32,523 nt of DNA from an uncultured Collinsella sp. (lineage in GTDB: Bacteria; Actinomycetota; Coriobacteriia; Coriobacteriales; Coriobacteriaceae). A program made the translations under genes and the position numbers. The notes under the pieces are model-generated. The model did no database searches. It was not told the DNA's origin and saw nothing but the letters and a program-made list of their open reading frames with translations. Below, in pieces: positions 6,124 through 25,564 of the stretch. The DNA lies in NCBI GenBank assembly GCA_902489295.1, contig CABTZM010000001.1, positions 1 to 32,523 on the forward strand, in the 5' to 3' direction. How positions within the stretch are numbered: the first letter of the stretch is position 1; every line of letters starts with the position of its first letter.

Positions 6124-6225
6124 ACCTGCCAAAAAGGGACAGGTTTATTTTGGCAGGTTTTATCTGGGAAAACGCAAAGCCCCAGTTGTTACCTGCCAAA
6201 ATAAACCTATCCCTATTTGGCAGGT
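6124..6225. repeat. Inverted doublet of 35-bp REP-like palindromes
   Basis: 6124-6158 ACCTGCCAAAAAGGGACAGGTTTATTTTGGCAGGT and 6191-6225, its near reverse complement, separated by 32 bp. Confidence 0.85.
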
Positions 6226-6252
6226 GCGCTAGTATAGGGAACAACAGATTCG

Positions 6253-6344
6253 ATGCGGGAGTGCCGGCGGTGCAAACCACAAGGCTGAGAGGGCATGGGG
6301 CCCAATCCTTTGAACCTGTCAGTTAATGCTGGCGTAGGGAGCAT
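6253..6344 (+). promoter_or_regulatory. TPP riboswitch
   Basis: GGGAGTGCC...GGCTGAGA...CCTTTGAACCTG...GTTAATGCTGGCGTAGGGA with an ATGC/GCAT closing stem, directly upstream of thiM. Confidence 0.95.
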
Positions 6345-6355
6345 GCCGCCTTTAC

Positions 6356-6386
6356 AGGGGCGCTGTCTATGCACAGCGCCCCTTTT
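6356..6386 (+). terminator. Terminator hairpin of the TPP riboswitch expression platform
   Basis: AGGGGCGCTGT...ACAGCGCCCCTTTT between the aptamer and the thiM RBS. Confidence 0.75.
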
Positions 6387-9591: not shown

Positions 9592-12309
9592 ATGGACACC
9601 GTCAGCAATTACACCGAAACGCTCGAAAAGACCGTCCGTGACCTTCTCGAGCGTCAGGATGATCTGATTAGGACGGCCTTTACCGACCAGCTCACCGGAC
9701 TTGGCAACCGCGGCGGCTTTGCCCGTTCCCTAGAGGAAATCTGGGAGCAGGAACTGCCCGTGACCATGGCGTTTATCGACATCGATAACCTTAAGCACTG
9801 CAACGACGTCTTTGGGCATGACGAGGGCAACCGCTATATCTTGCAGGTAAGTCTCTATCTCAAGCTGTATATGAAGGTGGACGAGGCGGCGTTTCGCATA
9901 GGCGGCGACGAGTTTGCCATCCTGTCTACGATTGCGACCGAGGACGACCTCGCCGAGCGCCTGGAACACTGCCGAACGGTCCTACTCAAAAACAACGATT
10001 CCGAGATGCCTCACTCGTTTAGCTACGGAGTGTCGCACGCCGACCCCGCCCTGGGTGAAGTCTCCAATCGCATGACACTCGATGCCGACCATCGCATGTA
10101 CGACTACAAGCTACGCCATGCCATGCATCTTGATCGACGCAATATCGCGCAAGTCCACACCGACGACTTCGAAATAAGCGATCGCGTTTTTGACGCCTTT
10201 TCGATGCTCAACGAAGGCCGTTATTGCTTTATCGAGAACTTGGACAAACATCGCACCCTTTGGTCACAAGGCGCCTCGCGCGATCTCGGTCTTCCTTCTG
10301 AGCATGTAGACAACTGCCACGATTACTGGAAAACGCGCGTCCACCCCGATGACCTTGAGGCCTACATCAACGACATCGACCAAATCTATAATGGCTCTAA
10401 ACACCGCCGCGTCATGCAGTACCGCATGCGCAATGCCGCGGGCGACTACGTCCTCTGCCGCGCTCGCGGGTTTCGCATCGACGGCGACGGAAATACCCCC
10501 TCGCTCTATGTCGGCGAACTTGTTAACCACTCACTCGCCGAGACCGTCGACGCCGCCACGGGCCTCGGAACGCAGCGTATGCTGATCAACGCTATCGATG
10601 CCTGCCGTCGCGACCGTTGCGAGACGGGGCTTATAGCGGTCCGCGTTTGTGGCACGGCAAAGTTCAACGAGCTCTACGGGGCCGAGGCTGTCGACAACAT
10701 GCTCGCCGAATACGCAGGCCGCATGTTATCGATCACCCGCGGCAGAAGTCGCGTCTTCCGCTCGCGAAACGCCCAGTTCGTCGTGCTCAGCAACGATCTG
10801 GACCACGAGGCATTCGAGCAACTGACCCATCATCTTAAAGAGGCCGTTTTCGCTCCTGTTCGAATCGCGAACGACACCATTACCCCCGTCTGTCTTGTCG
10901 TCCCGGCCTTTTACGAGCGCTTAATCAATCAAGCGACCGCTGTTTTAGGCGAACTCGACCGTCGTCTTCGCGCCGCCGGCGGGCTTGCCCCCAACGACAG
11001 CCTCCCCATACCCGAGATTGAGCGTAAAAGCGCCGTCGCCGAACGCATCGATACGCTCACGGGCCTCTATCGACCCAGCGAGTTTATGCGGCGTGCCAAC
11101 GCATTTCTGAGGACAGGGCGCGACGGCGCTTGGTGTATCGCCACCGTCGACATGGGTCATATGCGACTGTTTAACGAATGGCACGGACAGGCCGAGGGCG
11201 ACCGCGTGCTCGCCGATGTGGGTACGGTCCTCAAAGACATCGAGAATGCCGAGATGGGCGTCGCAGGATACTGGGGCCAAGACGACTTTTGCATTCTCAT
11301 CCCCTTTGAGCACGACACCGTCCATCAAATCTATAACCGCGTTCGCGCCGCCGTGGCCAAGCATGATGACGGTGTGGGTTTCTGGCCGTCCATGGGCGTT
11401 TGCCCCATCGACCCCAACGAGGAAATCACCATCGACGCGCAGGCCAAGGCCATGTTTACCAATCGGCGCGCAAAAAACGACTTTAAGGAGCGCGTCGCCA
11501 TTTTCCGCCCCGAGGAGTACGAGCGCGAAACCGCGTTCCACCGCACGCTGACCGAATTCCAGTATGCGTTCTCAAACGGCCGCATTACCTACTACCTGCA
11601 GCCCCAGGTCGACATGGAAACTGGCGAGATCGTTGGCGCCGAGGCGCTCACGCGCTGGATTGGCAAGGACGGTTCCCTCATTTCGCCTGTAACGTTTATC
11701 CCCGCACTCGAGGAAAGCGGCTTTGTAGTGACGCTCGACAAGTACATTTGGCAGGGCGTCGCCTCGTGGCTGCGCGAGCGCATCGACCGGGGGCTTCGCG
11801 TGGTTCCGATCTCGCTCAATGTGTCGCGCGTGGATATCCTTGCCTGCGACGTTGCCGAAGATATGGGAGCACTTGCCGCCCAATACAACCTACCGCCCGA
11901 ACTCATGCGCATCGAGATCACCGAGACAGCCTATACGGGAGAATCCGAGGCCGTGGACAAACTGACAGCCGACCTGCACACCCGTGGCTTCTCGACCTAT
12001 ATGGACGATTTTGGCACCGGCCAGTCCACGCTCGCGATGCTCAAGAACGTCAACGTCGACGTCATCAAGCTCGACCGCACGTTTGTGCCCGTCGACGGCG
12101 ATCATGGCCGCAGCACGCAAATCATTTCATCAATGCTCGAGATGGCGCAGTCGCTCCATCTGCCCGTCGTGGTCGAAGGCGTCGAGACAAATGAGCAGGC
12201 GAACATGCTGCGACAGATGGGCGCCCGCTACGCTCAGGGCTTCCTCTACTACCGCCCCATGCCGGCGAAGGATTTTGAGGCATTGCTCGATGGTGGCAAT
12301 AACAACTGA
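9592..12309 (+). CDS. GGDEF-PAS-degenerate GGDEF x2-EAL protein (c-di-GMP cyclase/phosphodiesterase)
   Basis: DQLTGLGNR..FRIGGDEF; PAS-like VHPDD..YRMRN; degenerate RNAQF and GQDDF sites; EAL motifs AEAL, DDFGTG, EGVE and QGF. Start chosen at ATG 9592. Confidence 0.9.
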   Translation: MDTVSNYTETLEKTVRDLLERQDDLIRTAFTDQLTGLGNRGGFARSLEEIWEQELPVTMAFIDIDNLKHCNDVFGHDEGNRYILQVSLYLKLYMKVDEAAFRIGGDEFAILSTIATEDDLAERLEHCRTVLLKNNDSEMPHSFSYGVSHADPALGEVSNRMTLDADHRMYDYKLRHAMHLDRRNIAQVHTDDFEISDRVFDAFSMLNEGRYCFIENLDKHRTLWSQGASRDLGLPSEHVDNCHDYWKTRVHPDDLEAYINDIDQIYNGSKHRRVMQYRMRNAAGDYVLCRARGFRIDGDGNTPSLYVGELVNHSLAETVDAATGLGTQRMLINAIDACRRDRCETGLIAVRVCGTAKFNELYGAEAVDNMLAEYAGRMLSITRGRSRVFRSRNAQFVVLSNDLDHEAFEQLTHHLKEAVFAPVRIANDTITPVCLVVPAFYERLINQATAVLGELDRRLRAAGGLAPNDSLPIPEIERKSAVAERIDTLTGLYRPSEFMRRANAFLRTGRDGAWCIATVDMGHMRLFNEWHGQAEGDRVLADVGTVLKDIENAEMGVAGYWGQDDFCILIPFEHDTVHQIYNRVRAAVAKHDDGVGFWPSMGVCPIDPNEEITIDAQAKAMFTNRRAKNDFKERVAIFRPEEYERETAFHRTLTEFQYAFSNGRITYYLQPQVDMETGEIVGAEALTRWIGKDGSLISPVTFIPALEESGFVVTLDKYIWQGVASWLRERIDRGLRVVPISLNVSRVDILACDVAEDMGALAAQYNLPPELMRIEITETAYTGESEAVDKLTADLHTRGFSTYMDDFGTGQSTLAMLKNVNVDVIKLDRTFVPVDGDHGRSTQIISSMLEMAQSLHLPVVVEGVETNEQANMLRQMGARYAQGFLYYRPMPAKDFEALLDGGNNN

Positions 12310-12436: not shown

Positions 12437-13966
12437 ATGAACGAGTCATATCGCTTGGGCGAGCAATCGATTATTGCCTATCTTCAGCGACTTGCGAATG
12501 GTGTCTCGACCGCCGAACTCGATGTTTCCGCGCTGCCTGCTGAGCTACGCGCCGTTGGTGAGCAACTGCAAAAGACGCATGCCATCCTGCAACAAGAGCG
12601 CCAGCTGCTTGAGTGCAACGCCTATATCGATCCGCTCACCAACTTGGGCAACCGCGGCGGACTCGACCGTCACGTCGAGCAGCTCTGGCGCAAAGGCGAC
12701 CCCTTCACCTGCGCCTATATTGACATCGACCACCTTAAGCACTGCAACGATAAGTTTGGCCACGCCGAAGGCAACCGCTATATTCTGGGCATCTGCCGCG
12801 CGCTCACCGAGGCAATGGAGCACGATGAAATGCTGTTCCGTATCGGTGGAGATGAATTTGTACTCGTGTCCCCCACGACAGGCGAAGCCGAGCTCGAGCA
12901 GCGCTTGGAGCGGACACGCACCGATCTTGTCGAGGCAACATCAGACGGCAAGGCGCCCATGATCGCTAGCTTTAGCTTTGGCTGCTCGCGCGTCGATCCA
13001 CTTGCCGGCGACACGCGTCGCCAGATGACGATGGATGCCGATCGCAAGATGTATCGCTATAAGCTTATGCATCGTGTGCAGCAACCGAAAGACCATGACG
13101 CGCCGCCACACCCAATTGCCGAGCAGCTTCCGTGCAACGACCGCGTATTCCAAGCGATCTCTATGAGCTCCGAGACGCGCTATCCGTTTATCCTCAATCT
13201 CGATACGGGCGAATCACAATGGTCGGTTAATGCCGTACGCGATTTTGACCTGCCCTCCCAGCATCCCTACAACTCACTCGACTTGTGGCTTGCCCGCGTT
13301 CACCCCGAGGACCGCGACAACGTACGCGCCGAGCTCGACATGGTGATAAACGGTACGTGGCACTTCCACTACATGCAGTATCGCGTGATGGATGCCACCG
13401 AAGCATACGTGCTTTGCGACTGCACGGGCTACCGCTTGGACGGCACCGATACCGAGCCCAACATGTACGTGGGCATGATTATCAACCGCAGCTTGGCAGA
13501 TACGACCGATTCCGTGACCGGCCTGGGCGACATCCACGCCCTGGTCAACGCCATTGGCGAAATGCGTCGCGTCGCGCGCAAGGCGGGCTTGGTCGCCATT
13601 AAAATCGACGATATCGCTCAGGTCAATGCCCGCTTTGGCTTTGATGCGGGCGACCGCGTTTTGGCGGAGAGCGCCGCCCGCCTCATGGATTGTTCGCGCG
13701 GTAAGGGTCGTCTGTTCCGCTCGACCGGACCGATGTTCGTGGCGCTTTTCGACGAATTCGATCCCGAAGAGACCGACGCGATCGCAAAGGAAATCGAGCG
13801 GTTCCTGGGCTCTCCCGTGCTCTTTGGCTCGTTTGAATATCAGCCGCCCCTTCGCGTGGCCACGCTTCATCTGGATACCGTCGACCGACAGCCCGTTTCC
13901 ATTTTGAACGAGCTCAAAGTGTTGCTCGGGAAAGCCGTGCAGGTGCCAGGTACCAAACTGGATTAG
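12437..13966 (+). CDS. GGDEF-PAS-degenerate GGDEF diguanylate cyclase
   Basis: DPLTNLGNR..FRIGGDEF, PAS-like VHPEDR and degenerate TGPMF site. AAGGAGG RBS. Confidence 0.88.
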   Translation: MNESYRLGEQSIIAYLQRLANGVSTAELDVSALPAELRAVGEQLQKTHAILQQERQLLECNAYIDPLTNLGNRGGLDRHVEQLWRKGDPFTCAYIDIDHLKHCNDKFGHAEGNRYILGICRALTEAMEHDEMLFRIGGDEFVLVSPTTGEAELEQRLERTRTDLVEATSDGKAPMIASFSFGCSRVDPLAGDTRRQMTMDADRKMYRYKLMHRVQQPKDHDAPPHPIAEQLPCNDRVFQAISMSSETRYPFILNLDTGESQWSVNAVRDFDLPSQHPYNSLDLWLARVHPEDRDNVRAELDMVINGTWHFHYMQYRVMDATEAYVLCDCTGYRLDGTDTEPNMYVGMIINRSLADTTDSVTGLGDIHALVNAIGEMRRVARKAGLVAIKIDDIAQVNARFGFDAGDRVLAESAARLMDCSRGKGRLFRSTGPMFVALFDEFDPEETDAIAKEIERFLGSPVLFGSFEYQPPLRVATLHLDTVDRQPVSILNELKVLLGKAVQVPGTKLD

Positions 13967-15103: not shown

Positions 15104-16234
15104 ATGCCCAACAAACCCGTGAAGATCATCATGCTTACCGGATACCTCGGCGCCGGCAAGACCACACTGCTCAACCACATCCTCGCTAACGACGGCGGCA
15201 TCCGCGCCGCCGTGATCGTCAACGATATCGGCGAGATCAACGTCGACGCCAGCCTCATCGCCGACGGCGGCCTTTCCGAGACCGACGACCTCATCCCGCT
15301 CACCAACGGCTGCATCTGCTGCACGCTTTCGGACGACCTTGCCAACCAGCTGCAGGGCATCGCCGATTCGGGCAAGTTCGACTACATCATCATCGAGGCC
15401 TCGGGTATCTGCGAGCCTATCCCCATCGCCTACACCATCTCGCGCTTCTGCGACGAGGCCAAGGTGGGCGGCCAGCCCAAGCTTGCACTCGACAACATCG
15501 TGGCTGTGGTCGATTGCGCCCGCATGTACGACGAGTTCAACGGCGGCCGCGACCTGTTGGCCGAGGATATCGACGAGGACGACATCGAGAGCCTGCTCAT
15601 CCAGCAGATCGAGTTCTGCTCCACGCTGATCCTCAACAAGACCGATACCGTGAGCCCTGAGCAGATCGCCGAGCTCAAGGCTATCGTGCGCAGCCTGCAG
15701 AAGGACGCCGTGATTGTCGAGGCCCAAAACGGCGAGGTCCCCATGGAGGAGCTGCTCGACACCGACCGCTTCGACTTTATGCGCGCCTACAACTCCGCCG
15801 CCTGGATCGAGGCCATGGAGCATCCCGAGGAGCACGACGACCCCGAGGTGCTCGAGTACGACATCGAGACCTTTGTGTACTCGCGCCGCAAGCCGTTTGA
15901 CCTGCAGAAGTTCACCGATTTTGTTGAGCAGGAGTGGCCCGACGAGGTCATCCGCGTCAAGGGTCCGCTGTGGCAGACCGGCGATCCGGACATGTGCTAC
16001 ATGTTCGAGCAGGCCGGCCACCAAATGCGCCTGATGGAGAACGGTCTGTTCGTTGACTCCGCGCCCGAGGGCGAGAAGCAGAAGATCATCGACGAGAACC
16101 CCGAGATCATGCAGATTTGGGACGACGAGACGGGCGACCGCATGACGAGCCTGTGCATCATCGGCCGTCACATGGACAAGGATGCGCTCATCGCCTCCCT
16201 CGATGCCTGCCTGACCGACTGGCACCGCGCCTAG
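15104..16234 (+). CDS. COG0523/CobW family G3E GTPase (metallochaperone)
   Basis: GYLGAGKTT, GCICC metal site, IEASG, NKTD and a CobW_C-like C-terminus. AAGGAGG RBS. Confidence 0.92.
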   Translation: MPNKPVKIIMLTGYLGAGKTTLLNHILANDGGIRAAVIVNDIGEINVDASLIADGGLSETDDLIPLTNGCICCTLSDDLANQLQGIADSGKFDYIIIEASGICEPIPIAYTISRFCDEAKVGGQPKLALDNIVAVVDCARMYDEFNGGRDLLAEDIDEDDIESLLIQQIEFCSTLILNKTDTVSPEQIAELKAIVRSLQKDAVIVEAQNGEVPMEELLDTDRFDFMRAYNSAAWIEAMEHPEEHDDPEVLEYDIETFVYSRRKPFDLQKFTDFVEQEWPDEVIRVKGPLWQTGDPDMCYMFEQAGHQMRLMENGLFVDSAPEGEKQKIIDENPEIMQIWDDETGDRMTSLCIIGRHMDKDALIASLDACLTDWHRA

Positions 16235-16273
16235 ATTTATCCAAGCGGGCATTTTTCCGCCTACGTAACCGCC

Positions 16274-16308
16274 AAACCACCACGAAGGTGCCCTTCGTGG
16301 TGGTTTTT
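16274..16308 (+). terminator. Intrinsic terminator
   Basis: AAACCACCACGAAGG...CCTTCGTGGTGGTTTTT perfect stem with T tract. Confidence 0.8.
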
Positions 16309-16329
16309 CGTTCTGAGCCAAGGAGATTC

Positions 16330-16929
16330 ATGTTCAACATTGTGCTGTATGCGCCCGAGATTCCGGCCAACACGGGCAATATCGGCCGCACCTGCGTGGT
16401 TACCGGCGCCCGCCTGCATCTGGTGGAGCCGCTGGGGTTTTCGCTCGACGACAAGACGGTGCGTCGCGCCGGCCTGGGCTACTGGCAAAATTTGGACGTG
16501 ACGACCTATGCCGGCTGGGAGGATTTCCTTGCGCGCAACGGCCTCTCCCCCGCCGACGAACGCCTGCATTTGCTGACCAAAAAGGCGCGCCGCACCTATG
16601 CGCAAAGTACCTACCGCGACGGTGACTTTTTGGTCTTTGGCAGCGAGAGCTCGGGGATTCCCGAGCCACTGCTTGCCGCGGCGCCCGAGCGCTGCGAGCG
16701 CATCCCCATGTTGCGCGATTGCGACTCGCTCGAAAACGCCGACGCCTGGGAGGCCCACGAGGAGTCGCTCGGGCATACCGAGGACAGCCACGAAGCCATC
16801 CTTCGACAGGATATCTGCGGCAACTTCGTCGACCCGGACGACTACCGCATCAGCGCTCTCAACCTCTCCAACAGCGCCGCCATCGTCCTCTACGAGGCCC
16901 TGCGCCAAACAGGCTTTCCGGGAATGTGA
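16330..16929 (+). CDS. trmL: tRNA (cytidine/uridine-34 2'-O)-methyltransferase with internal insertion
   Basis: PEIPANTGNIGRTC, PLGF, RRAGL, FGSESSG, IPM...LNLSNS..YEALRQ. AAGGAG RBS. Confidence 0.9.
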   Translation: MFNIVLYAPEIPANTGNIGRTCVVTGARLHLVEPLGFSLDDKTVRRAGLGYWQNLDVTTYAGWEDFLARNGLSPADERLHLLTKKARRTYAQSTYRDGDFLVFGSESSGIPEPLLAAAPERCERIPMLRDCDSLENADAWEAHEESLGHTEDSHEAILRQDICGNFVDPDDYRISALNLSNSAAIVLYEALRQTGFPGM

Positions 16930-16956
16930 CAAAGGAACTGTCCCTTTGTCACATTC
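16922..16956. repeat. 35-bp REP-like palindrome containing the trmL stop codon
   Basis: GAATGTGACAAAGGAACTGTCCCTTTGTCACATTC; its central 31 bp match the copy at 20652-20682 at 30 of 31 positions. Confidence 0.9.
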
Positions 16957-16958
16957 GG

Positions 16959-19472
16959 TTATAGGTAGCGGCCGGTGATGCTTGCGGGGCAGGCCACGAT
17001 GTCGCCCGGCGTGCCGGCGCAGACGATTTGCCCGCCCGCGTCACCGCCGCCCGGGCCCATGTCGATCACATAGTCGGCGTTGCGGATAAGGTCGAGGTCG
17101 TGTTCGATCACGACAACTGTGGCGCCCTTGGCGACGAGGCCGTCGAACACACTCAGCAGCACCTGAACATCGAGCGGGTGCAGGCCGATCGTGGGCTCGT
17201 CGAACACAAACACGGCATCATCCTGCACGCGGCCCATCTCGCTCGCGAGCTTAAGACGCTGCGCCTCGCCGCCCGAAAGTGCCGGCGTGGGCTCACCGAG
17301 CGTGAGATAACCCAATCCCAGGTCGTGCAAGGTCTGCAAGCGCGCCTGTACCTTTTTGAGTCCCAGCGTGGCGTCGAGGGCCTCGTCCACACTCATGTCC
17401 ATGAGCTGCGGCAACGTCAGTAAGCTCCCGTCCTTGCCCTCGCGATGGATATGCGAAGCCGCGTCTGCATAACGTGAGCCGCGACATGCCGGACAGACGA
17501 TCTCGACGTCGGGCAAAAACTGCACGTCGAGCGATATCGAGCCCGTGCCATCGCACGTAGGGCAGCGCAAAGCGCCAGTGTTGTAGCTAAAGGCGCCCGC
17601 CTTGTAGCCGGCTGCTTTGGCCTCGGGCGTGCGGGCGAAAGCGTGACGCAGCTCATCATGGATGTCGGCATAAGTCGCCACCGTCGAGCGCACGTTGGCG
17701 CCGATGGGCGTAGCGTCAATCAAATTTGCGCGGGCAATGCCCTCGGCATCGACCCAACGCACATGGCTTGGCAGGCGCTCGCCAGTTGCCTGAGCCTTGA
17801 GCGCCGGGATGAGCGTCTCGAGCACCAACGTCGTCTTACCCGAACCCGAAACGCCCGTCACCGCGACCAAGCGACCGCGCGGGATATCGACTTCGAGCGG
17901 TTTGACGGTATGGATGGCATCGGTCGCCATGCGGATATGGCCCCGGTCGAACATTTCGTCGTCAGCCACCTGCGGCCGCAAGCGCTTGGGCTCCGAGCGC
18001 AAAAACGGGGCGATGCGGCTGTCCTGCGATTGCTCGACCTCGTCCACCGTACCTGCAGCGACAACATTACCGCCGCCTGCTCCGGCAACGGGGCCCATCT
18101 CGACCAGATAATCGGCTTCCGCCAGTACGCGCGTGTCGTGGTCGACAACGACCACGGTGTTGCCGTCATCCACCAAATCGCGCATCACGCCTACCAGGCC
18201 GTCGACATTGGCAGGATGCAAGCCAATCGAGGGCTCGTCCAGCACATAGAGCACGCCCGTCGATCGGTTACGCACCACGCGGGCGAGCTGCACGCGCTGA
18301 CGCTCGCCCGTGGAGAGCGTGGCACCGGCGCGGTCGAGTGAAAGGTAATCGAGGCCCAGATCGACCAGTCGACGGGCCGTGCTCAAAAACGAATCGCAGA
18401 TATCCGTCGCCATGGGCTGCATCTCGGCCGGCAAGGATGCGGGCACCCCGCGCACCCACTCAATCGCCTCACCCAGCGTCATAGCCGCGGCCTGCGCCAG
18501 ATTGATACCGCGCACCTGGGGATGGCGTGCGGCCTCGGAGAGACGCGTGCCGCCACAGTCACGGCATGGCCCCTCGCGCAAAAAGCGCGCCACGCGCTTG
18601 AGGCCCTTGTCGTCCTTAACCTTGGCGAGCGCATTCTCGACGGTATAGGCAGCGTTGTAATAGGTAAAATCGAGCGGCGTGGCGCCCTCGCCGTTTTTGG
18701 GAACGTAGAGAATGTGCTTTTTAACCGCCGGACCGTGGAACACGATGTCGCGCTCTTGAGGCGTGAGCTGGTTAAACGGCACGTCGGTGCGCACGCCCAT
18801 CTCGCCAGCCACCTGCTTCATCAGATCCCACATGAGTGTGCCCCAAGGAAGCACCGCGCCCTCGTTGATAGTCTTGGACTCGTCGGGCACCAGGCTCGCC
18901 TCGTCCACCTCGCGCATGACGCCGGTACCGCCACAGGTGGGACATGCACCGCCGCTATTGAAAGCCAAATCCTCGGCACTCGGCGCGTAGAACTCGCGGC
19001 CGCATGTCGGACACGTGAGCGACAGGCCTGCAGCCACGTTAAGGCTCGGCTCCACGCGCGCCCCGCAATGTGGGCACACGTGATGGGCGCAACGGCTAAA
19101 GAGCAGACGCAGACTATTGTTGAGCTCGGTCATGGTACCAAAGGTCGAGCGCACGCCCGGCACGCTCGGACGCTGGTGCAGCGCGAGCGCCGCCGGCACG
19201 TGCAATACCTCATCCACCTGGGCGTGCTCGGCCTGTGTCAGACGACGTCGAGTATAGGTGCTGAGTGCTTCCAAGTAGCGACGCGAGCCCTCGGCATAAA
19301 GAACCCCCAGCGCCAGCGAGCTCTTGCCCGAGCCCGACACGCCGGCAATACCCACGAGCTTTCCCAGCGGAATATCAATATCGATGTCCTTAAGGTTATG
19401 GACGCGCGCACCACGCACCTCGATAGCCTGCGGGCTCATCTTCTGTTCCGTCACCTTTATCACCCTACTCAT
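16959..19472 (-). CDS. UvrA paralog, class II (UvrA2/DrrC-like) ABC ATPase
   Basis: GARVHNLK, two Walker A (GVSGSGKS/T), LSTGERQR and LSGGEAQRLKLA, CxxC zinc modules. Exact start uncertain (19472, 19454 or 19439). Confidence 0.9.
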   Translation of the reverse strand: MSRVIKVTEQKMSPQAIEVRGARVHNLKDIDIDIPLGKLVGIAGVSGSGKSSLALGVLYAEGSRRYLEALSTYTRRRLTQAEHAQVDEVLHVPAALALHQRPSVPGVRSTFGTMTELNNSLRLLFSRCAHHVCPHCGARVEPSLNVAAGLSLTCPTCGREFYAPSAEDLAFNSGGACPTCGGTGVMREVDEASLVPDESKTINEGAVLPWGTLMWDLMKQVAGEMGVRTDVPFNQLTPQERDIVFHGPAVKKHILYVPKNGEGATPLDFTYYNAAYTVENALAKVKDDKGLKRVARFLREGPCRDCGGTRLSEAARHPQVRGINLAQAAAMTLGEAIEWVRGVPASLPAEMQPMATDICDSFLSTARRLVDLGLDYLSLDRAGATLSTGERQRVQLARVVRNRSTGVLYVLDEPSIGLHPANVDGLVGVMRDLVDDGNTVVVVDHDTRVLAEADYLVEMGPVAGAGGGNVVAAGTVDEVEQSQDSRIAPFLRSEPKRLRPQVADDEMFDRGHIRMATDAIHTVKPLEVDIPRGRLVAVTGVSGSGKTTLVLETLIPALKAQATGERLPSHVRWVDAEGIARANLIDATPIGANVRSTVATYADIHDELRHAFARTPEAKAAGYKAGAFSYNTGALRCPTCDGTGSISLDVQFLPDVEIVCPACRGSRYADAASHIHREGKDGSLLTLPQLMDMSVDEALDATLGLKKVQARLQTLHDLGLGYLTLGEPTPALSGGEAQRLKLASEMGRVQDDAVFVFDEPTIGLHPLDVQVLLSVFDGLVAKGATVVVIEHDLDLIRNADYVIDMGPGGGDAGGQIVCAGTPGDIVACPASITGRYL

Positions 19473-20583
19473 GCCATAAAATGCGATCGCGAATGTACTC
19501 GCCCAGCATGGGCACGGTAAACCGGACAAGGCCGTATCCGGCAGCCTCGACGACGCGCTCGCGAATCAGACTTGCACGATATTTACTCGCCCAGCTCTGG
19601 GTACGGTCACAGCGTTCAATGATATCCGCCGTGCGCGTCGGCTTGTCCTCGTCAACCGCGATAGCCTCGATAAAGAGGCGCTGAGGGCTGCGCAGACCGT
19701 AATACAGAGGTGCGTCAACCGCTTCGTAGAACTCGGAGACGGCATCCGCATGGCCATTCTCGACATCGCGCCTTTCGATGACCTGCGAGCCACGCCGGAC
19801 AGCAGACCGCCACATGTAATAGCCCACCAGCTGAACCATATAGGGATGCCCCATGCTCTTGCGCGCCGCAAGGTCCGCCGTCTCCGCGTCAACGTAAAGA
19901 CCAGCGTCTTTGACCGTCTGGATATACGAATCGCGCACTTTGGGCAAAGATATTGCCCCCAACGTACGCTGCTGGGCACGCCGCAAAAACGTCACGCTCG
20001 GCTCTTCGAGCAGATCGTCAACCATACTGGGCAAGCCGGCGAACGCCAGCGCAAGACCGCGCTGGTCGCTATCGGGCAAGCCCGTGGCATCCTGGTCTCC
20101 GAGCACCTGCTGATAGAGGACGGCAAGAGCCGCCAGTTCCTCGATAGACGCCGATTGTGCCTCGTCAATCGCAAACAAGACGCCCTTGCCCGGACCGAGC
20201 TTCTTGAGACGCTCGTTGACCAGCCCTCGCAATGTCTCGCCTTTTGCCCGCGCCGCCTCGACCGACATCCGGCCAAACGACGGCCCAAACTCCATTGACG
20301 TCACAACGGGTTTATTCGAGCGAAGCGCGTCGGCCAAGCGGTCGCACAAACCAAGCGAAGCGGAATCGGAGACAACCGCCCATCCGCGCTCGCTGGCTAG
20401 ACGTTGCAGCTCCCGCAGGAGAACCGTTTTGCCATAGCCGCGGTTTCCCGTAATGAGCATGAGCCTGCCCGGCGCTCCGGCGCCGTTGTCGAGCCCTTCC
20501 TCAAAATCTTCGATGACCGACTCGCGACCGATGAGTATCGGAGGCCGCTTACCAGCTGTGGGCTTAAAGGGATTTGGATTCAT
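19465..20583 (-). CDS. AAA/P-loop ATPase with probable C-terminal winged helix
   Basis: NPFKP..G..P...GRE, Walker A GNRGYGKT, Walker B IDEAQ, GHPY.VQL and a C-terminal HTH-like segment. GAGGAGG RBS. Confidence 0.85.
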   Translation of the reverse strand: MNPNPFKPTAGKRPPILIGRESVIEDFEEGLDNGAGAPGRLMLITGNRGYGKTVLLRELQRLASERGWAVVSDSASLGLCDRLADALRSNKPVVTSMEFGPSFGRMSVEAARAKGETLRGLVNERLKKLGPGKGVLFAIDEAQSASIEELAALAVLYQQVLGDQDATGLPDSDQRGLALAFAGLPSMVDDLLEEPSVTFLRRAQQRTLGAISLPKVRDSYIQTVKDAGLYVDAETADLAARKSMGHPYMVQLVGYYMWRSAVRRGSQVIERRDVENGHADAVSEFYEAVDAPLYYGLRSPQRLFIEAIAVDEDKPTRTADIIERCDRTQSWASKYRASLIRERVVEAAGYGLVRFTVPMLGEYIRDRILWHE

Positions 20584-20617
20584 ATCGGCCTCCTCGGATT
20601 GGCAAACCCTGGTAACA

Positions 20618-20647
20618 GTTATACCAACTTATACCGAGTTATACCAA
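20618..20647. repeat. Three direct repeats with 10-bp period upstream of the AAA ATPase
   Basis: GTTATACCAA CTTATACCGA GTTATACCAA. Confidence 0.85.
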
Positions 20648-20650
20648 TAG

Positions 20651-20683
20651 CATGTGACAAAGGAACTGCCCCTTTGTCACATG
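20651..20683. repeat. 33-bp REP-like palindrome containing the GTPase stop codon
   Basis: CATGTGACAAAGGAACTGCCCCTTTGTCACATG, in the same orientation as the copy at 16922. Confidence 0.9.
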
Positions 20684-22680
20684 TGGCCGAAAAACTCGGC
20701 GTCTGCTGCTCGCCAGGGGCGGAAGGTGGCGGGATCGACCTTTACGTGCGCCGCAGCGGGTGCGTCGTACCATTTGACCGTGTAGCCGGCGCCGTGGGCG
20801 CAAAAGACCGAGTCGGGCGTGTTGGGCAGATCGGCCTCGGGCTCGTAGGCGGCAGCCTCGATTACGCGCTCGCCATCATGGCAAGCCGCATAACCGGCGA
20901 ACTCCAGGTACAGATGCCCGCGACCGCTCGTGTAGGCAGCCACCTCCAGCGCATAATCTTGCACCTCGGATGCCGGAACGCGACCCACAAGCTTCGCTCG
21001 GTCTCCCGCCATCGTCGGCGGCTCGTACTCGGCACCCATGCGTGTGGCATCTGACAACGCCCGGCCCACGCACTCCCCCGGCACCTCGAGCTCAAAGTGG
21101 TACCACGGCTCCAGCAACACGTCTGCGCCGACCTCGCGCGCCTGCATCAAACCCTGGCGAATCGCGCGATACGTGGCCTGGCGAAAATCGCCGCCCTCGG
21201 TGTGTTTGGCATGCGCGCGGCCGCCCGTGAGCGTAATGCGCACATCGGTGATGGGCGAGCCCGTCAGCACGCCCAGGTGGTCGCGCTCCATAGCGTTGGT
21301 GAGTGCCAAACGCTGCCAGTTAAGATCGAGCTCGTCGGTCGAGGTCACGGTGCCAAACTGCACACCCGAACCCGCCGGCAACGGCTCCAGGCGCAGATGC
21401 ACCTCGGCATAGTGGCGCAGCGGCTCAAAGTGGCCCACGCCCTCGACCGGCCGCGAAATAGTCTCCTTATAGAGAATGCCGCCGGGCTCAAACGCAACCG
21501 AAAGGCCAAAGCGATCGGCCAACACCCGCTGCACGACCTCGAGTTGCACGGCGCCCATCAACTGCAAATGGATCTGCTCAAGATGCGTATTCCAGCTTAC
21601 GCCGAGCATGGGATCTTCGTCCGCCAACTCACTCAGCGCTTTAAACACCGCATGAACGTCGTGTTCGCCCGGCAGCACCGTATAGGTGAGGACCGGAGCG
21701 ATGACGGGCGCATCGCCCGCGGGCTCCGTGCCCAGGGCGTCCCCTGGGCGAACGTGCGCAAGACCCGTCACGGCGCAAATACCGCCAGCAGCAACTTCTT
21801 GGGCAAGCTCATACTTCTCGCCGTTATAGATGCGTACCTGATCGACCTTCTGTTCCCACGCCTCGGCACTAGAATGCCCGCTGATCATCTGTTTTGCGCG
21901 CAGCGTGCCGCCGGTCACTTTAACCCAAGCCAAGCGCTCGCCACGATCCCCGCGGCTGATACGATAGACGCGCGCGGCAAACTCCGGGAGCCACGCCTGC
22001 TCACGCATCAGCGCGCATATACCATCCAGTAGCTCGTCAACGCCTTGGTCCTTGAGCGCCGAGCCGGCAAAGCAGGGAAAGAGCTTGCGCTCGGCAACCA
22101 TGCGCGACAGCGTTGCGACAGAAAGCTCACCCGCTTCAAGAAACTCCTCGAGCGCCGCTTCGTCCAACGCAGCAGCGTCCTCCTGAACGGCGCCGCCCGC
22201 CAGCAGCTCGTTGGCATCTAGGCAGCCCTCGGAAAGACGCTGCCCGAGTTGTGCCAGCAAAACATCGCGGCCGGGATTCTCCAAATCGATCTTGTTGATG
22301 AAGATGAACGTCGGGATGTCATAGCGTGCAAGCAGGCGCCACAGGGTTTCGGTGTGCCCCTGCACGCCATCGTTGGCGCCCACCACCAGAATCGCGTAGT
22401 CCAGGGCACGCAGTGTGCGCTCCGCCTCGGCAGAAAAATCGACATGGCCGGGAGCATCCACGAGCATGACGTGGGTATCGCCGTGGTCGAGCACGGCCTG
22501 CGACGAGAAAATCGTGATGCCGCGCTCGCGCTCGATCGTGTTAGTGTCCAGATGCGAATCGCCATCGTCCACGCGGCCACGCTTGCGAATGCGGCCCGCG
22601 TTGAACAGCATGGCCTCGGCCAACGTGGTCTTGCCGGCATCGACATGCGCCAAGATTCCAACGACCGCTTGCTTCGACAT
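20677..22680 (-). CDS. Tet-like / EF-G-related translational GTPase
   Basis: AHVDAGKTT, ERERGITI, DAPGHVDF, NKID, GHFEPLRHYAEV, HTEGGDFRQATYRA and LLEPWY. AGGAG RBS. Confidence 0.88.
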   Translation of the reverse strand: MSKQAVVGILAHVDAGKTTLAEAMLFNAGRIRKRGRVDDGDSHLDTNTIERERGITIFSSQAVLDHGDTHVMLVDAPGHVDFSAEAERTLRALDYAILVVGANDGVQGHTETLWRLLARYDIPTFIFINKIDLENPGRDVLLAQLGQRLSEGCLDANELLAGGAVQEDAAALDEAALEEFLEAGELSVATLSRMVAERKLFPCFAGSALKDQGVDELLDGICALMREQAWLPEFAARVYRISRGDRGERLAWVKVTGGTLRAKQMISGHSSAEAWEQKVDQVRIYNGEKYELAQEVAAGGICAVTGLAHVRPGDALGTEPAGDAPVIAPVLTYTVLPGEHDVHAVFKALSELADEDPMLGVSWNTHLEQIHLQLMGAVQLEVVQRVLADRFGLSVAFEPGGILYKETISRPVEGVGHFEPLRHYAEVHLRLEPLPAGSGVQFGTVTSTDELDLNWQRLALTNAMERDHLGVLTGSPITDVRITLTGGRAHAKHTEGGDFRQATYRAIRQGLMQAREVGADVLLEPWYHFELEVPGECVGRALSDATRMGAEYEPPTMAGDRAKLVGRVPASEVQDYALEVAAYTSGRGHLYLEFAGYAACHDGERVIEAAAYEPEADLPNTPDSVFCAHGAGYTVKWYDAPAAAHVKVDPATFRPWRAADAEFFGHM

Positions 22681-22755
22681 GGCTCTCCTCTTATTGCAAG
22701 CCCATCGCACGCGGCAACGGGCGTTCACGCTCCACACTGGATGATACAATTTACG

Positions 22756-25476: not shown

Positions 25477-25512
25477 AAAGGGCCGATCGCGCATATCCGC
25501 GGTCGGCCCTTT
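25477..25512. terminator. Intrinsic terminator, probably bidirectional
   Basis: AAAGGGCCGATCGCG...CGCGGTCGGCCCTTT. Confidence 0.7.
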
Positions 25513-25564
25513 ACGTTTGCCCAGATAACACCTGCCAAAATAAACCTGTCCCTTTTTGGTAGGT
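25509..25564. repeat. Third copy of the ACCTGCC palindrome plus flanking spacer
   Basis: 52/56 identical to the reverse complement of 6124-6179; the palindrome proper is 25530-25564. Confidence 0.88.

Follow-up and report, generated by a model that had tools for sequence, protein, structure and literature searches.

The window analysed here, a 32,523-nucleotide stretch of DNA from an uncultured Collinsella species, is one entire contig of its source genome (G000, a metagenome-assembled genome, or MAG, of 2.04 Mb and 60% GC) and carries two nearly identical 31-bp palindromes. One lies at the end of trmL and the other at the end of a gene for an EF-G/Tet(M)-like translational GTPase, with a UvrA paralogue (uvrA2) and an AAA ATPase gene between them. 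These palindromes belong to a dispersed family, ATGTGACAAAGGGAC-N-GTCCCTTTGTCACAT, whose members sit at gene ends, obey an orientation rule, keep their stems paired as the arms change and occur at the junctions of gene-sized insertions and deletions. We put at about 0.7 the probability that the family is a lineage-restricted hairpin repeat at the ends of transcription units, similar in kind to TRIT (Tuberculosis Rho-independent terminator motif) and to repetitive extragenic palindromes (REPs), which serves as a putative two-way transcript-end element and also as an indel breakpoint. The repeat is newly recognised but of a kind already known: a gene-end palindrome restricted to certain lineages, with gene-sized indels at its copies.

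The two copies in the window are:

16924..16954, unstranded: palindrome copy 1, between convergent trmL (+) and uvrA2 (–), containing the last codon of trmL (ATG) and its stop (TGA, 16927-16929)
20652..20682, unstranded: palindrome copy 2, between the 3' end of the GTPase gene and the AAA promoter region, containing the last ATG and the stop TGA of the GTPase gene

An earlier reading of the window made from the letters alone (the sequence-only reading) had reported two 31-mers in the same orientation, 30/31 identical and 3728 bp apart. A search with ATGTGACAAAGGAACTGTCCCTTTGTCACAT confirmed the pair, copy 1 matching in full and copy 2 at all but one base (C for T at position 18), both on the plus strand with 3728 bp from start to start, and 0/100 shuffles of the window gave a match. 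Reading the frames likewise verified that both neighbouring genes end ATG TGA inside the palindromes, as the trmL frame (+) closes with GGA ATG TGA and the GTPase frame (–) with CAC ATG TGA, the latter stop occupying 20677-20679 (TCA on the plus strand). Self-complementarity is 26/29 for copy 1 and 24/29 for copy 2, and because each copy is a near-perfect palindrome, only the central base and two mismatches in the arms define their shared orientation. Predicted RNA folds have energies of -21.8 kcal/mol (plus strand) and -23.2 kcal/mol (minus strand) for copy 1, with z scores of -4.5 and -5.8, and of -21.8 and -23.5 kcal/mol for copy 2. The copy 1 variant (GGAAC-T-GTCCC) is also present at the end of trmL in genomes G007, G009, G017, G056, G141, and G143, and a palindrome occupies the copy 2 position in the relatives examined. 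Rfam gave no family at either palindrome, its sole match in the window being a TPP riboswitch (6247-6357). A further palindromic repeat, ACCTGCCAAAAAGGGACAGGTTTATTTTGGCAGGT, forms an inverted doublet just upstream of this riboswitch (6124-6225) and recurs at 25509-25564. Its complementarity is 87-93%, and it has a AAAGGGACAG core in common with the 31-bp palindrome.

The source genome has about 22 copies of the repeat, which bears out the earlier description of the sites as REP-like. When ~22 copies are placed at random in 2.04 Mb, 58% of placements have one or more pairs within 3728 bp, so the closeness of the window pair is not beyond chance. The adjoining genes in this genome are ordinary ones (ABC transporters, NadA, PTS IID, LysR, Dus, Kup, ACC, a CDF transporter), and for 16 of the 22 copies a stop codon is no more than 15 nt away, five of these copies containing it. 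In a wider survey, 128 perfect copies from public Collinsella genomes were grouped into 59 sites. At 55 of these, an open reading frame (ORF) rich in G+C at third codon positions ends within 40 nt of the palindrome; where only one such ORF is present (40 sites), the stop overlaps the 31-mer in 16 and lies within 10 nt in 26. Read on the sense strand of the gene that ends there, the central base at these 40 sites is A in 27, T in 8, C in 4, and G in 1 (A versus T, p=0.002). The two window copies each adjoin a minus-strand gene and have T as the plus-strand central base; their direct orientation therefore follows from the family rule of A on the sense strand, not from target duplication.

Copies also cluster. 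In complete genome G144, 8/20 gaps between palindromes are shorter than 10 kb, compared with 1.7 expected (P ~5e-5), and clustering is seen in G089 (P ~0.01) and G033 (P ~0.03) as well. Across the class, we counted copies with a strict core pattern (at most 2 mismatches) in 17 Collinsella and 104 other sampled Coriobacteriia genomes. The source genome had 12 copies. Nine of the 17 Collinsella genomes had 8-16 and the other eight had none; outside the genus, one genome (G264) had 42 copies, another had 1, and the rest had none. The copies of G264, which belongs to a different family of the same order, have TTGACA...TGTCAA ends, and this patchy distribution goes beyond vertical descent of a terminator. 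A literature search on palindromic repeats in Collinsella and Coriobacteri- found no description of the ATGTGACAAAGGGAC-N-GTCCCTTTGTCACAT repeat. At three places that are palindrome sites in other Collinsella (C15:6572-6730, C83:5855-5958, and C29:4839-5030), the source genome has a different hairpin-like repeat of ~100-160 bp with the motif ...AGATTGCCCCGAAAGAGGAGCGC.GCGTAC...GTACGCAAGCGACG.TTGAGG.GCAAG..., a second dispersed family at the same sites.

First, the stems are maintained. They are 14-17 bp long, and across 65 distinct copies 90.5% of cells pair, with 9/16 stem pairs varying on both sides. These stem statistics were reached by only 0-2 of 500 shuffles, and slid controls paired at 40-60%. 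Compensatory arm variants include TGCGGCA/TGCCGCA, TGAGGCA/TGCCTCA, and CGTGACA/TGTCACG, and two variable flanking positions also remain complementary. Second, the palindromes stand where terminators stand. In genome G014, which is free of the repeat, the TrmL protein ends ...GFPGMA* and its gene is followed by an ordinary GC hairpin with a T-rich tail, and the GTPase ends ...FFARG*; this comparison argues that the palindrome occupies the place of an ordinary terminator and supplies the last Met codon and stop. By fold energy and stop-codon placement, the palindromes are stable GC-containing hairpins directly after genes, as intrinsic terminators are. They probably end or stabilise transcripts in both directions. 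Copy 1 would close the convergent trmL and AAA-uvrA2 units, copy 2 would close the GTPase unit just ahead of the AAA promoter, and the hairpin would act as a two-way terminator or 3'-end stabiliser, as proposed for mycobacterial TRIT and enterobacterial REP.

Third, the palindromes lie at the edges of gene-content differences. We measured the distance between the 3' ends of trmL and the GTPase gene in 151 sampled Collinsella genomes and found both ends in 137. In 25 of these the ends were on different contigs, in 3 divergent genomes (~76% identity) they were 15 kb apart in another arrangement, and in 109 they were syntenic, with the following gaps:

3146 bp: 1 of the 109 syntenic genomes
3770-3863 bp (the state of the window): 27 of 109
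~4360 bp: 2 of 109
4819 bp: 1 of 109
4994-5119 bp: 53 of 109
5617-5672 bp: 7 of 109
7702-7835 bp: 10 of 109
8155-9700 bp: 8 of 109

These size classes are combinations of three modules. The AAA' module is a 1.25-kb plus-strand gene between trmL and uvrA2 that encodes an AAA_16 plus winged-helix paralogue, 32% identical to the AAA ATPase. The GNAT module is a 0.6-kb acetyltransferase gene between AAA and uvrA2. The third is a low-GC island of ~4 kb that adjoins trmL and encodes an EcsC-like protein, DUF4230, an FxLYD-domain protein, and a small serine recombinase. The fullest array, in G130, reads trmL, palindrome, island, palindrome, AAA', palindrome, uvrA2, palindrome, GNAT, decayed palindrome, AAA, palindrome, GTPase.

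As the sequence-only reading had anticipated, recombining two copies would leave one palindrome serving both neighbours, and relatives show exactly such junctions. The window-type junction of trmL, palindrome, and uvrA2 has the left context of the first palindrome that flanks AAA' elsewhere and the right context of the second. A single palindrome joins AAA to uvrA2 in G141, versus AAA, palindrome, GNAT, palindrome, uvrA2 in G031 and G130. In G083, AAA and its promoter are lost and one palindrome joins GNAT to the GTPase gene; in G054 the order is trmL, palindrome, island, palindrome, uvrA2. The palindrome between AAA' and uvrA2 in G004 is a left/right chimera of two arm variants. At a second locus (L121), sequences that flank separate palindromes on contigs C139 and C46 of the source genome are joined through a single palindrome in other genomes, and a Dus-ABC-AhpC region differs between the source genome and G144 around three palindromes. 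The uvrA2 tree does not sort genomes by module state; G007 (neither AAA' nor GNAT), for example, is sister to G143 (both) with support of 1.0, so module changes are recurrent or shuffled by recombination. Neither AAA' nor GNAT occurs anywhere in the source genome, in which the nearest relative is a 47% paralogue of AAA'.

In the reading we favour, AAA', GNAT, the recombinase island, and in one case AAA vary because the palindromes act as breakpoints. Near-identical repeats of ~30 bp lying one gene apart could recombine with each other or allow slippage, either of which would remove the intervening module and leave one palindrome, and insertions would land at palindromes too. We infer that the one-palindrome junctions arose through such repeat-to-repeat recombination or slippage. 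A recombination tract ending at the palindrome was also considered and rejected, as the near-identity of G141 to the window extends to ~17158, inside uvrA2. In G016, a different species representative, identity to the window is 99-100% from 16909 to ~23300 (~6.4 kb) and ~92% elsewhere on the contig, and in G016 this tract is directly preceded by the 4-kb recombinase island and a remnant of the 3' end of a resident uvrA2; it would represent either a recent inter-lineage exchange or a MAG chimera.

The genes between and beside the two palindromes are as follows:

16117..16929, plus strand: trmL (SpoU-type tRNA 2'-O-methyltransferase), maximal ORF; Pfam SpoU_methylase 8.4e-27; NCBIfam TrmL 3.7e-47, below the model cut-off
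16959..19439, minus strand: uvrA2 (UvrA paralogue); Pfam ABC_tran and UvrA_DNA-bind; TIGR00630 717 bits versus a cut-off of 729.8
19440..19464, minus strand: AAA-uvrA2 spacer, holding a decayed left half-palindrome (GGTGATAAAGG...)
19465..20583 (corrected gene call), minus strand: AAA_16/AAA_22 P-loop ATPase, 372 residues; Pfam AAA_16 9.8e-13
20584..20651, minus strand: AAA upstream region of 68 bp with three GGTATAA(C/G)T repeats at a period of 10-11 bp; presumed promoter/operator
20677..22749, minus strand: EF-G/Tet(M)-like translational GTPase; Pfam GTP_EFTU, EFG_III, EFG_IV, and EFG_C

The sequence-only reading took uvrA2 and AAA to be a cassette inserted at, or excisable through, the palindromes. 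The comparison does not sustain that proposal. There was no empty trmL-GTPase site in the 109 syntenic genomes, whose gaps all fall between 3146 and 9700 bp; uvrA2 was present in 23/23 fetched loci and AAA in 22/23; and orthologues of uvrA2 with 65-75% amino-acid identity are found across the order, in more distant genomes without AAA, trmL, the GTPase gene, or palindromes nearby. Thus, relatives carry the module, no empty allele exists, and a pair of nearby palindromes is to be expected from their abundance. What stood of the suggested comparison at the junction was the presence of different cargo between palindromes, which relatives show at the trmL/uvrA2 junction. The search of four metagenome runs for circle or deletion junctions returned one joint (16956>20652) with just 31 letters on one side, which match another palindrome copy, and hence no evidence of excision. 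The uvrA2-AAA pair is a resident chromosomal operon, not a mobile cassette, and was never seen to excise. The earlier remark that the window holds no recombinase takes on a different aspect in relatives, which carry the small serine recombinase of the 4-kb island at this locus, although the island is not consistently bounded by palindromes.

Several observations weigh against the palindromes being both transcript ends and breakpoints. The stems lack a U-rich tract (~7-9 nt) on their 3' side, the tails being TTCGG, TGTGG, and TTA, and a consensus terminator scan reported nothing at copy 1 or copy 2. According to the available portion of one study, mycobacterial RNA polymerase needs a U-tract for termination (PMC3993855), which makes termination by the hairpin alone doubtful. 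Mismatches of the G·U and A·C types on the sense strand number 10 versus 8 and 6 versus 5; this absence of strand bias means that selection at the RNA level is not demonstrated. Terminator function by itself also leaves unexplained the 29-mer core in the other family (G264, 42 copies), and a means of spread or a sequence-reading factor would therefore be needed; none was found. As to breakpoints, the window's AAA/uvrA2 spacer retains only a left half-palindrome and G074 retains the right half. The 87-bp AAA/uvrA2 junction of the window is found in 14/23 loci; its GGTGATAAAGG is the left arm of a palindrome that is complete in G133, and other genomes have here a full palindrome (G141) or a palindrome followed by GNAT, with or without a second palindrome. 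No palindrome separates the recombinase gene from AAA' in G010, G133, or G105. A two-palindrome locus on contig C155 of the source genome is collinear in 11/11 relatives with full coverage. Finally, each difference could be a deletion or an insertion, and recombination could also scatter the states on the uvrA2 tree.

Some of these points would suit palindromes that are gene-end hairpins and nothing else. Indel ends would then coincide with the palindromes because these lie at gene boundaries and selection tolerates only the gain or loss of whole genes. Palindromes stand at nearly every gene end of this locus, and any whole-gene indel would thus end near one; several junctions are imprecise or hold half-palindromes, and the C155 locus has not changed. 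We nevertheless regard this explanation as unlikely, since four module types at this locus and one elsewhere (L121) leave exactly one intact palindrome, bordered on the left as one copy is and on the right as the other is, an outcome that breaks independent of the repeat should seldom produce. The half-palindromes at other junctions also suggest breakage inside the repeat.

A still less probable explanation makes the palindromes crossover sites of a site-specific, integron- or pdif-like cassette system, with modules including uvrA2+AAA moved by a recombinase. In G054 and G130 the gene for the island's small serine recombinase lies ~155 bp away from a palindrome, and this enzyme would be one candidate; another would be a host tyrosine recombinase that recognises 12-bp arms on either side of a 7-bp centre, GAC-N-GTC. 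The array in G130, with each module bounded by palindromes, the precise one-palindrome junctions for AAA', GNAT, AAA, and the island, the occurrence of every module combination in discord with the uvrA2 tree, the clustering of copies in complete genomes, and the chimeric palindrome in G004 all speak for such a system. Yet the 109 genomes show neither an empty site nor a relocated uvrA2-AAA, most copies flank invariant housekeeping genes, the modules occur in both orientations with their own promoters, and in G010, G133, and G105 the recombinase end of the island has no palindrome. Serine recombinases make a 2-nt symmetric cut, which the odd-length centre of the palindrome does not fit. The only relative of the recombinase in the source genome is 63% identical and resides on C37, a contig on which the copy scan showed no palindrome, and AAA' and GNAT are absent from the rest of that genome. 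It is accordingly doubtful that Coriobacteriales possess an undescribed gene-shuffling system in which AAA', GNAT, AAA, the island, and in principle uvrA2-AAA are excised or captured between palindromes; were it real, it would place on the chromosome an equivalent of pdif modules or integron cassettes whose sites also serve as gene-end hairpins.

That the palindrome is instead bound as duplex DNA by a protein dimer, such as a regulator or nucleoid protein, is very improbable: the core is strongly conserved (27/35 columns at 90% or more) and recurs in a distant genus, but compensatory arm changes and complementary variable flanks preserve pairing and not a fixed recognition sequence, and the copies are placed at 3' ends, not promoters. 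An insertion sequence with palindromic ends was tried and discarded, as in three complete or near-complete genomes the half-sites abut as pairs, not 1-2 kb apart.

The reading we favour, a gene-end hairpin repeat that also provides breakpoints, has close parallels. REP/BIME and REPIN-RAYT elements of proteobacteria are dispersed extragenic palindromes at gene 3' ends and substrates of rearrangement. REPs are also cited as insertion hot spots (PMC7771070). The Collinsella palindromes resemble REPs in being dispersed, extragenic, present in many copies, and located at gene 3' ends; unlike REPs and REPINs, they form no doublets, are low in copy number, and overlap stop codons more tightly than is usual for REPs. 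Two Y1_Tnp (RAYT-like) ORFs are encoded in the source genome, scoring below the cut-off of the RAYT model NF047646 (57 versus 80 bits, the score of the C124 ORF), and neither a palindrome nor an inverted repeat of at least 11 bp was found near these two ORFs or three orthologous loci in relatives, unlike the flanking arrangement of RAYT genes. One of them (C124:208-1242, 344 residues) has orthologues with at least 69% identity in 9/9 palindrome-bearing and 0/8 palindrome-free sampled Collinsella, a distribution that follows phylogeny; the orthologues carry in-frame stops in 3/9 (pseudogenes), and G264, with its 42 palindromes, has just a 40% paralogue.

Integron attC sites are imperfect palindromes of 57-141 bp that separate gene cassettes served by an intI integrase with a Pc promoter. 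The likeness to integron cassettes is one of layout only, in that gene-sized modules lie between imperfect palindromes and their content varies among relatives; the Collinsella repeat, by contrast, is 31 bp long, its modules occur in both orientations with their own promoters, and most copies adjoin fixed housekeeping genes. The 23 arrangements fetched for the locus contain no integrase, and intI was not searched for genome-wide. In pdif modules of Acinetobacter plasmids, XerC/XerD sites (~28 bp, inverted arms) flank discrete modules, and the arrays differ between replicons. Here again the likeness (discrete modules bounded by sites with inverted arms) is of layout only, as the Collinsella palindrome has no resemblance to dif (11-6-11 layout), is chromosomal, and is dispersed genome-wide at gene ends.

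TRIT is the nearest match. As described in the available part of the report of Gardner et al. (2011), TRIT has 147 palindromic, largely bidirectional copies in Mycobacterium, placed tightly around the stop codon, and its authors inferred a possible additional sequence-reading factor (PMC3152330). Measured against that portion of the description, the Collinsella repeat shares its placement, with one conserved palindrome present in many copies across an actinobacterial genome, confined to a narrow zone at gene ends, where it often overlaps the coding sequence or stop, and largely bidirectional. It differs in its unrelated sequence, so that the likeness is of kind and not of homology, in its ~20 copies per genome versus 147, in its confinement to a Collinsella subclade and one other Coriobacteriales genus instead of Mycobacterium, and in marking indel junctions.

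The neighbouring genes add detail to the operon. The uvrA2 ATG lies 25 nt after the AAA stop, so AAA and uvrA2 read as a two-gene minus-strand operon. For uvrA2, the start was corrected from 19529 as first called to the ATG at 19439 (protein beginning MSPQAIEVRGARVHNLK), and the stop is at 16959-16961, 4 nt past copy 1. The protein aligns to the UvrA profile TIGR00630 at positions 252-923 only, scoring slightly below the equivalog cut-off, and a canonical uvrA-like paralogue is on contig C135 of the source genome. In PADLOC, the ABC ATPase domains of uvrA2 match mad3 and mad8; the matches of AAA were marginal (E 0.002-0.004), none being significant, and PADLOC called no defence system. Homologues of the AAA ATPase at 53-75% identity occur in Atopobium, Slackia, Parolsenella, and Collinsella, with source records that say just 'ATP-binding protein', and NCBIfam gave no match for it. 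A strict sigma-70 scan found no site within 16500-21000, and the AAA promoter is thus putative. The GTPase scores 424 bits against NCBIfam tet_protect, whose cut-off is 775, so no resistance gene is called. The true start of trmL is probably near 16330, because the match to the TrmL model begins only at residue 72 of the maximal ORF. The operon is sometimes damaged in nature, as uvrA2 of G135 lacks residues ~463-524, AAA of G092 is broken into two overlapping pieces near residue 183, and G083 lacks AAA. Elsewhere in the window, 9676-9839 and 12620-12783 are 71-78% identical and 2944 bp apart, which points to tandem paralogous genes.

The genus Collinsella is common in the human gut and comprises many closely related species. 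If the palindromes are indeed gene-end hairpins that also act as breakpoints, they would explain part of the gene-content variation in this genus. They would also be a second actinobacterial case, beside TRIT, of a sequence-specific transcript-end signal without a U-tract. For annotation, gene ends that fall inside the repeat can be accepted as real, uvrA2-AAA as a resident operon, and AAA', GNAT, and the island genes as the variable part of the locus.

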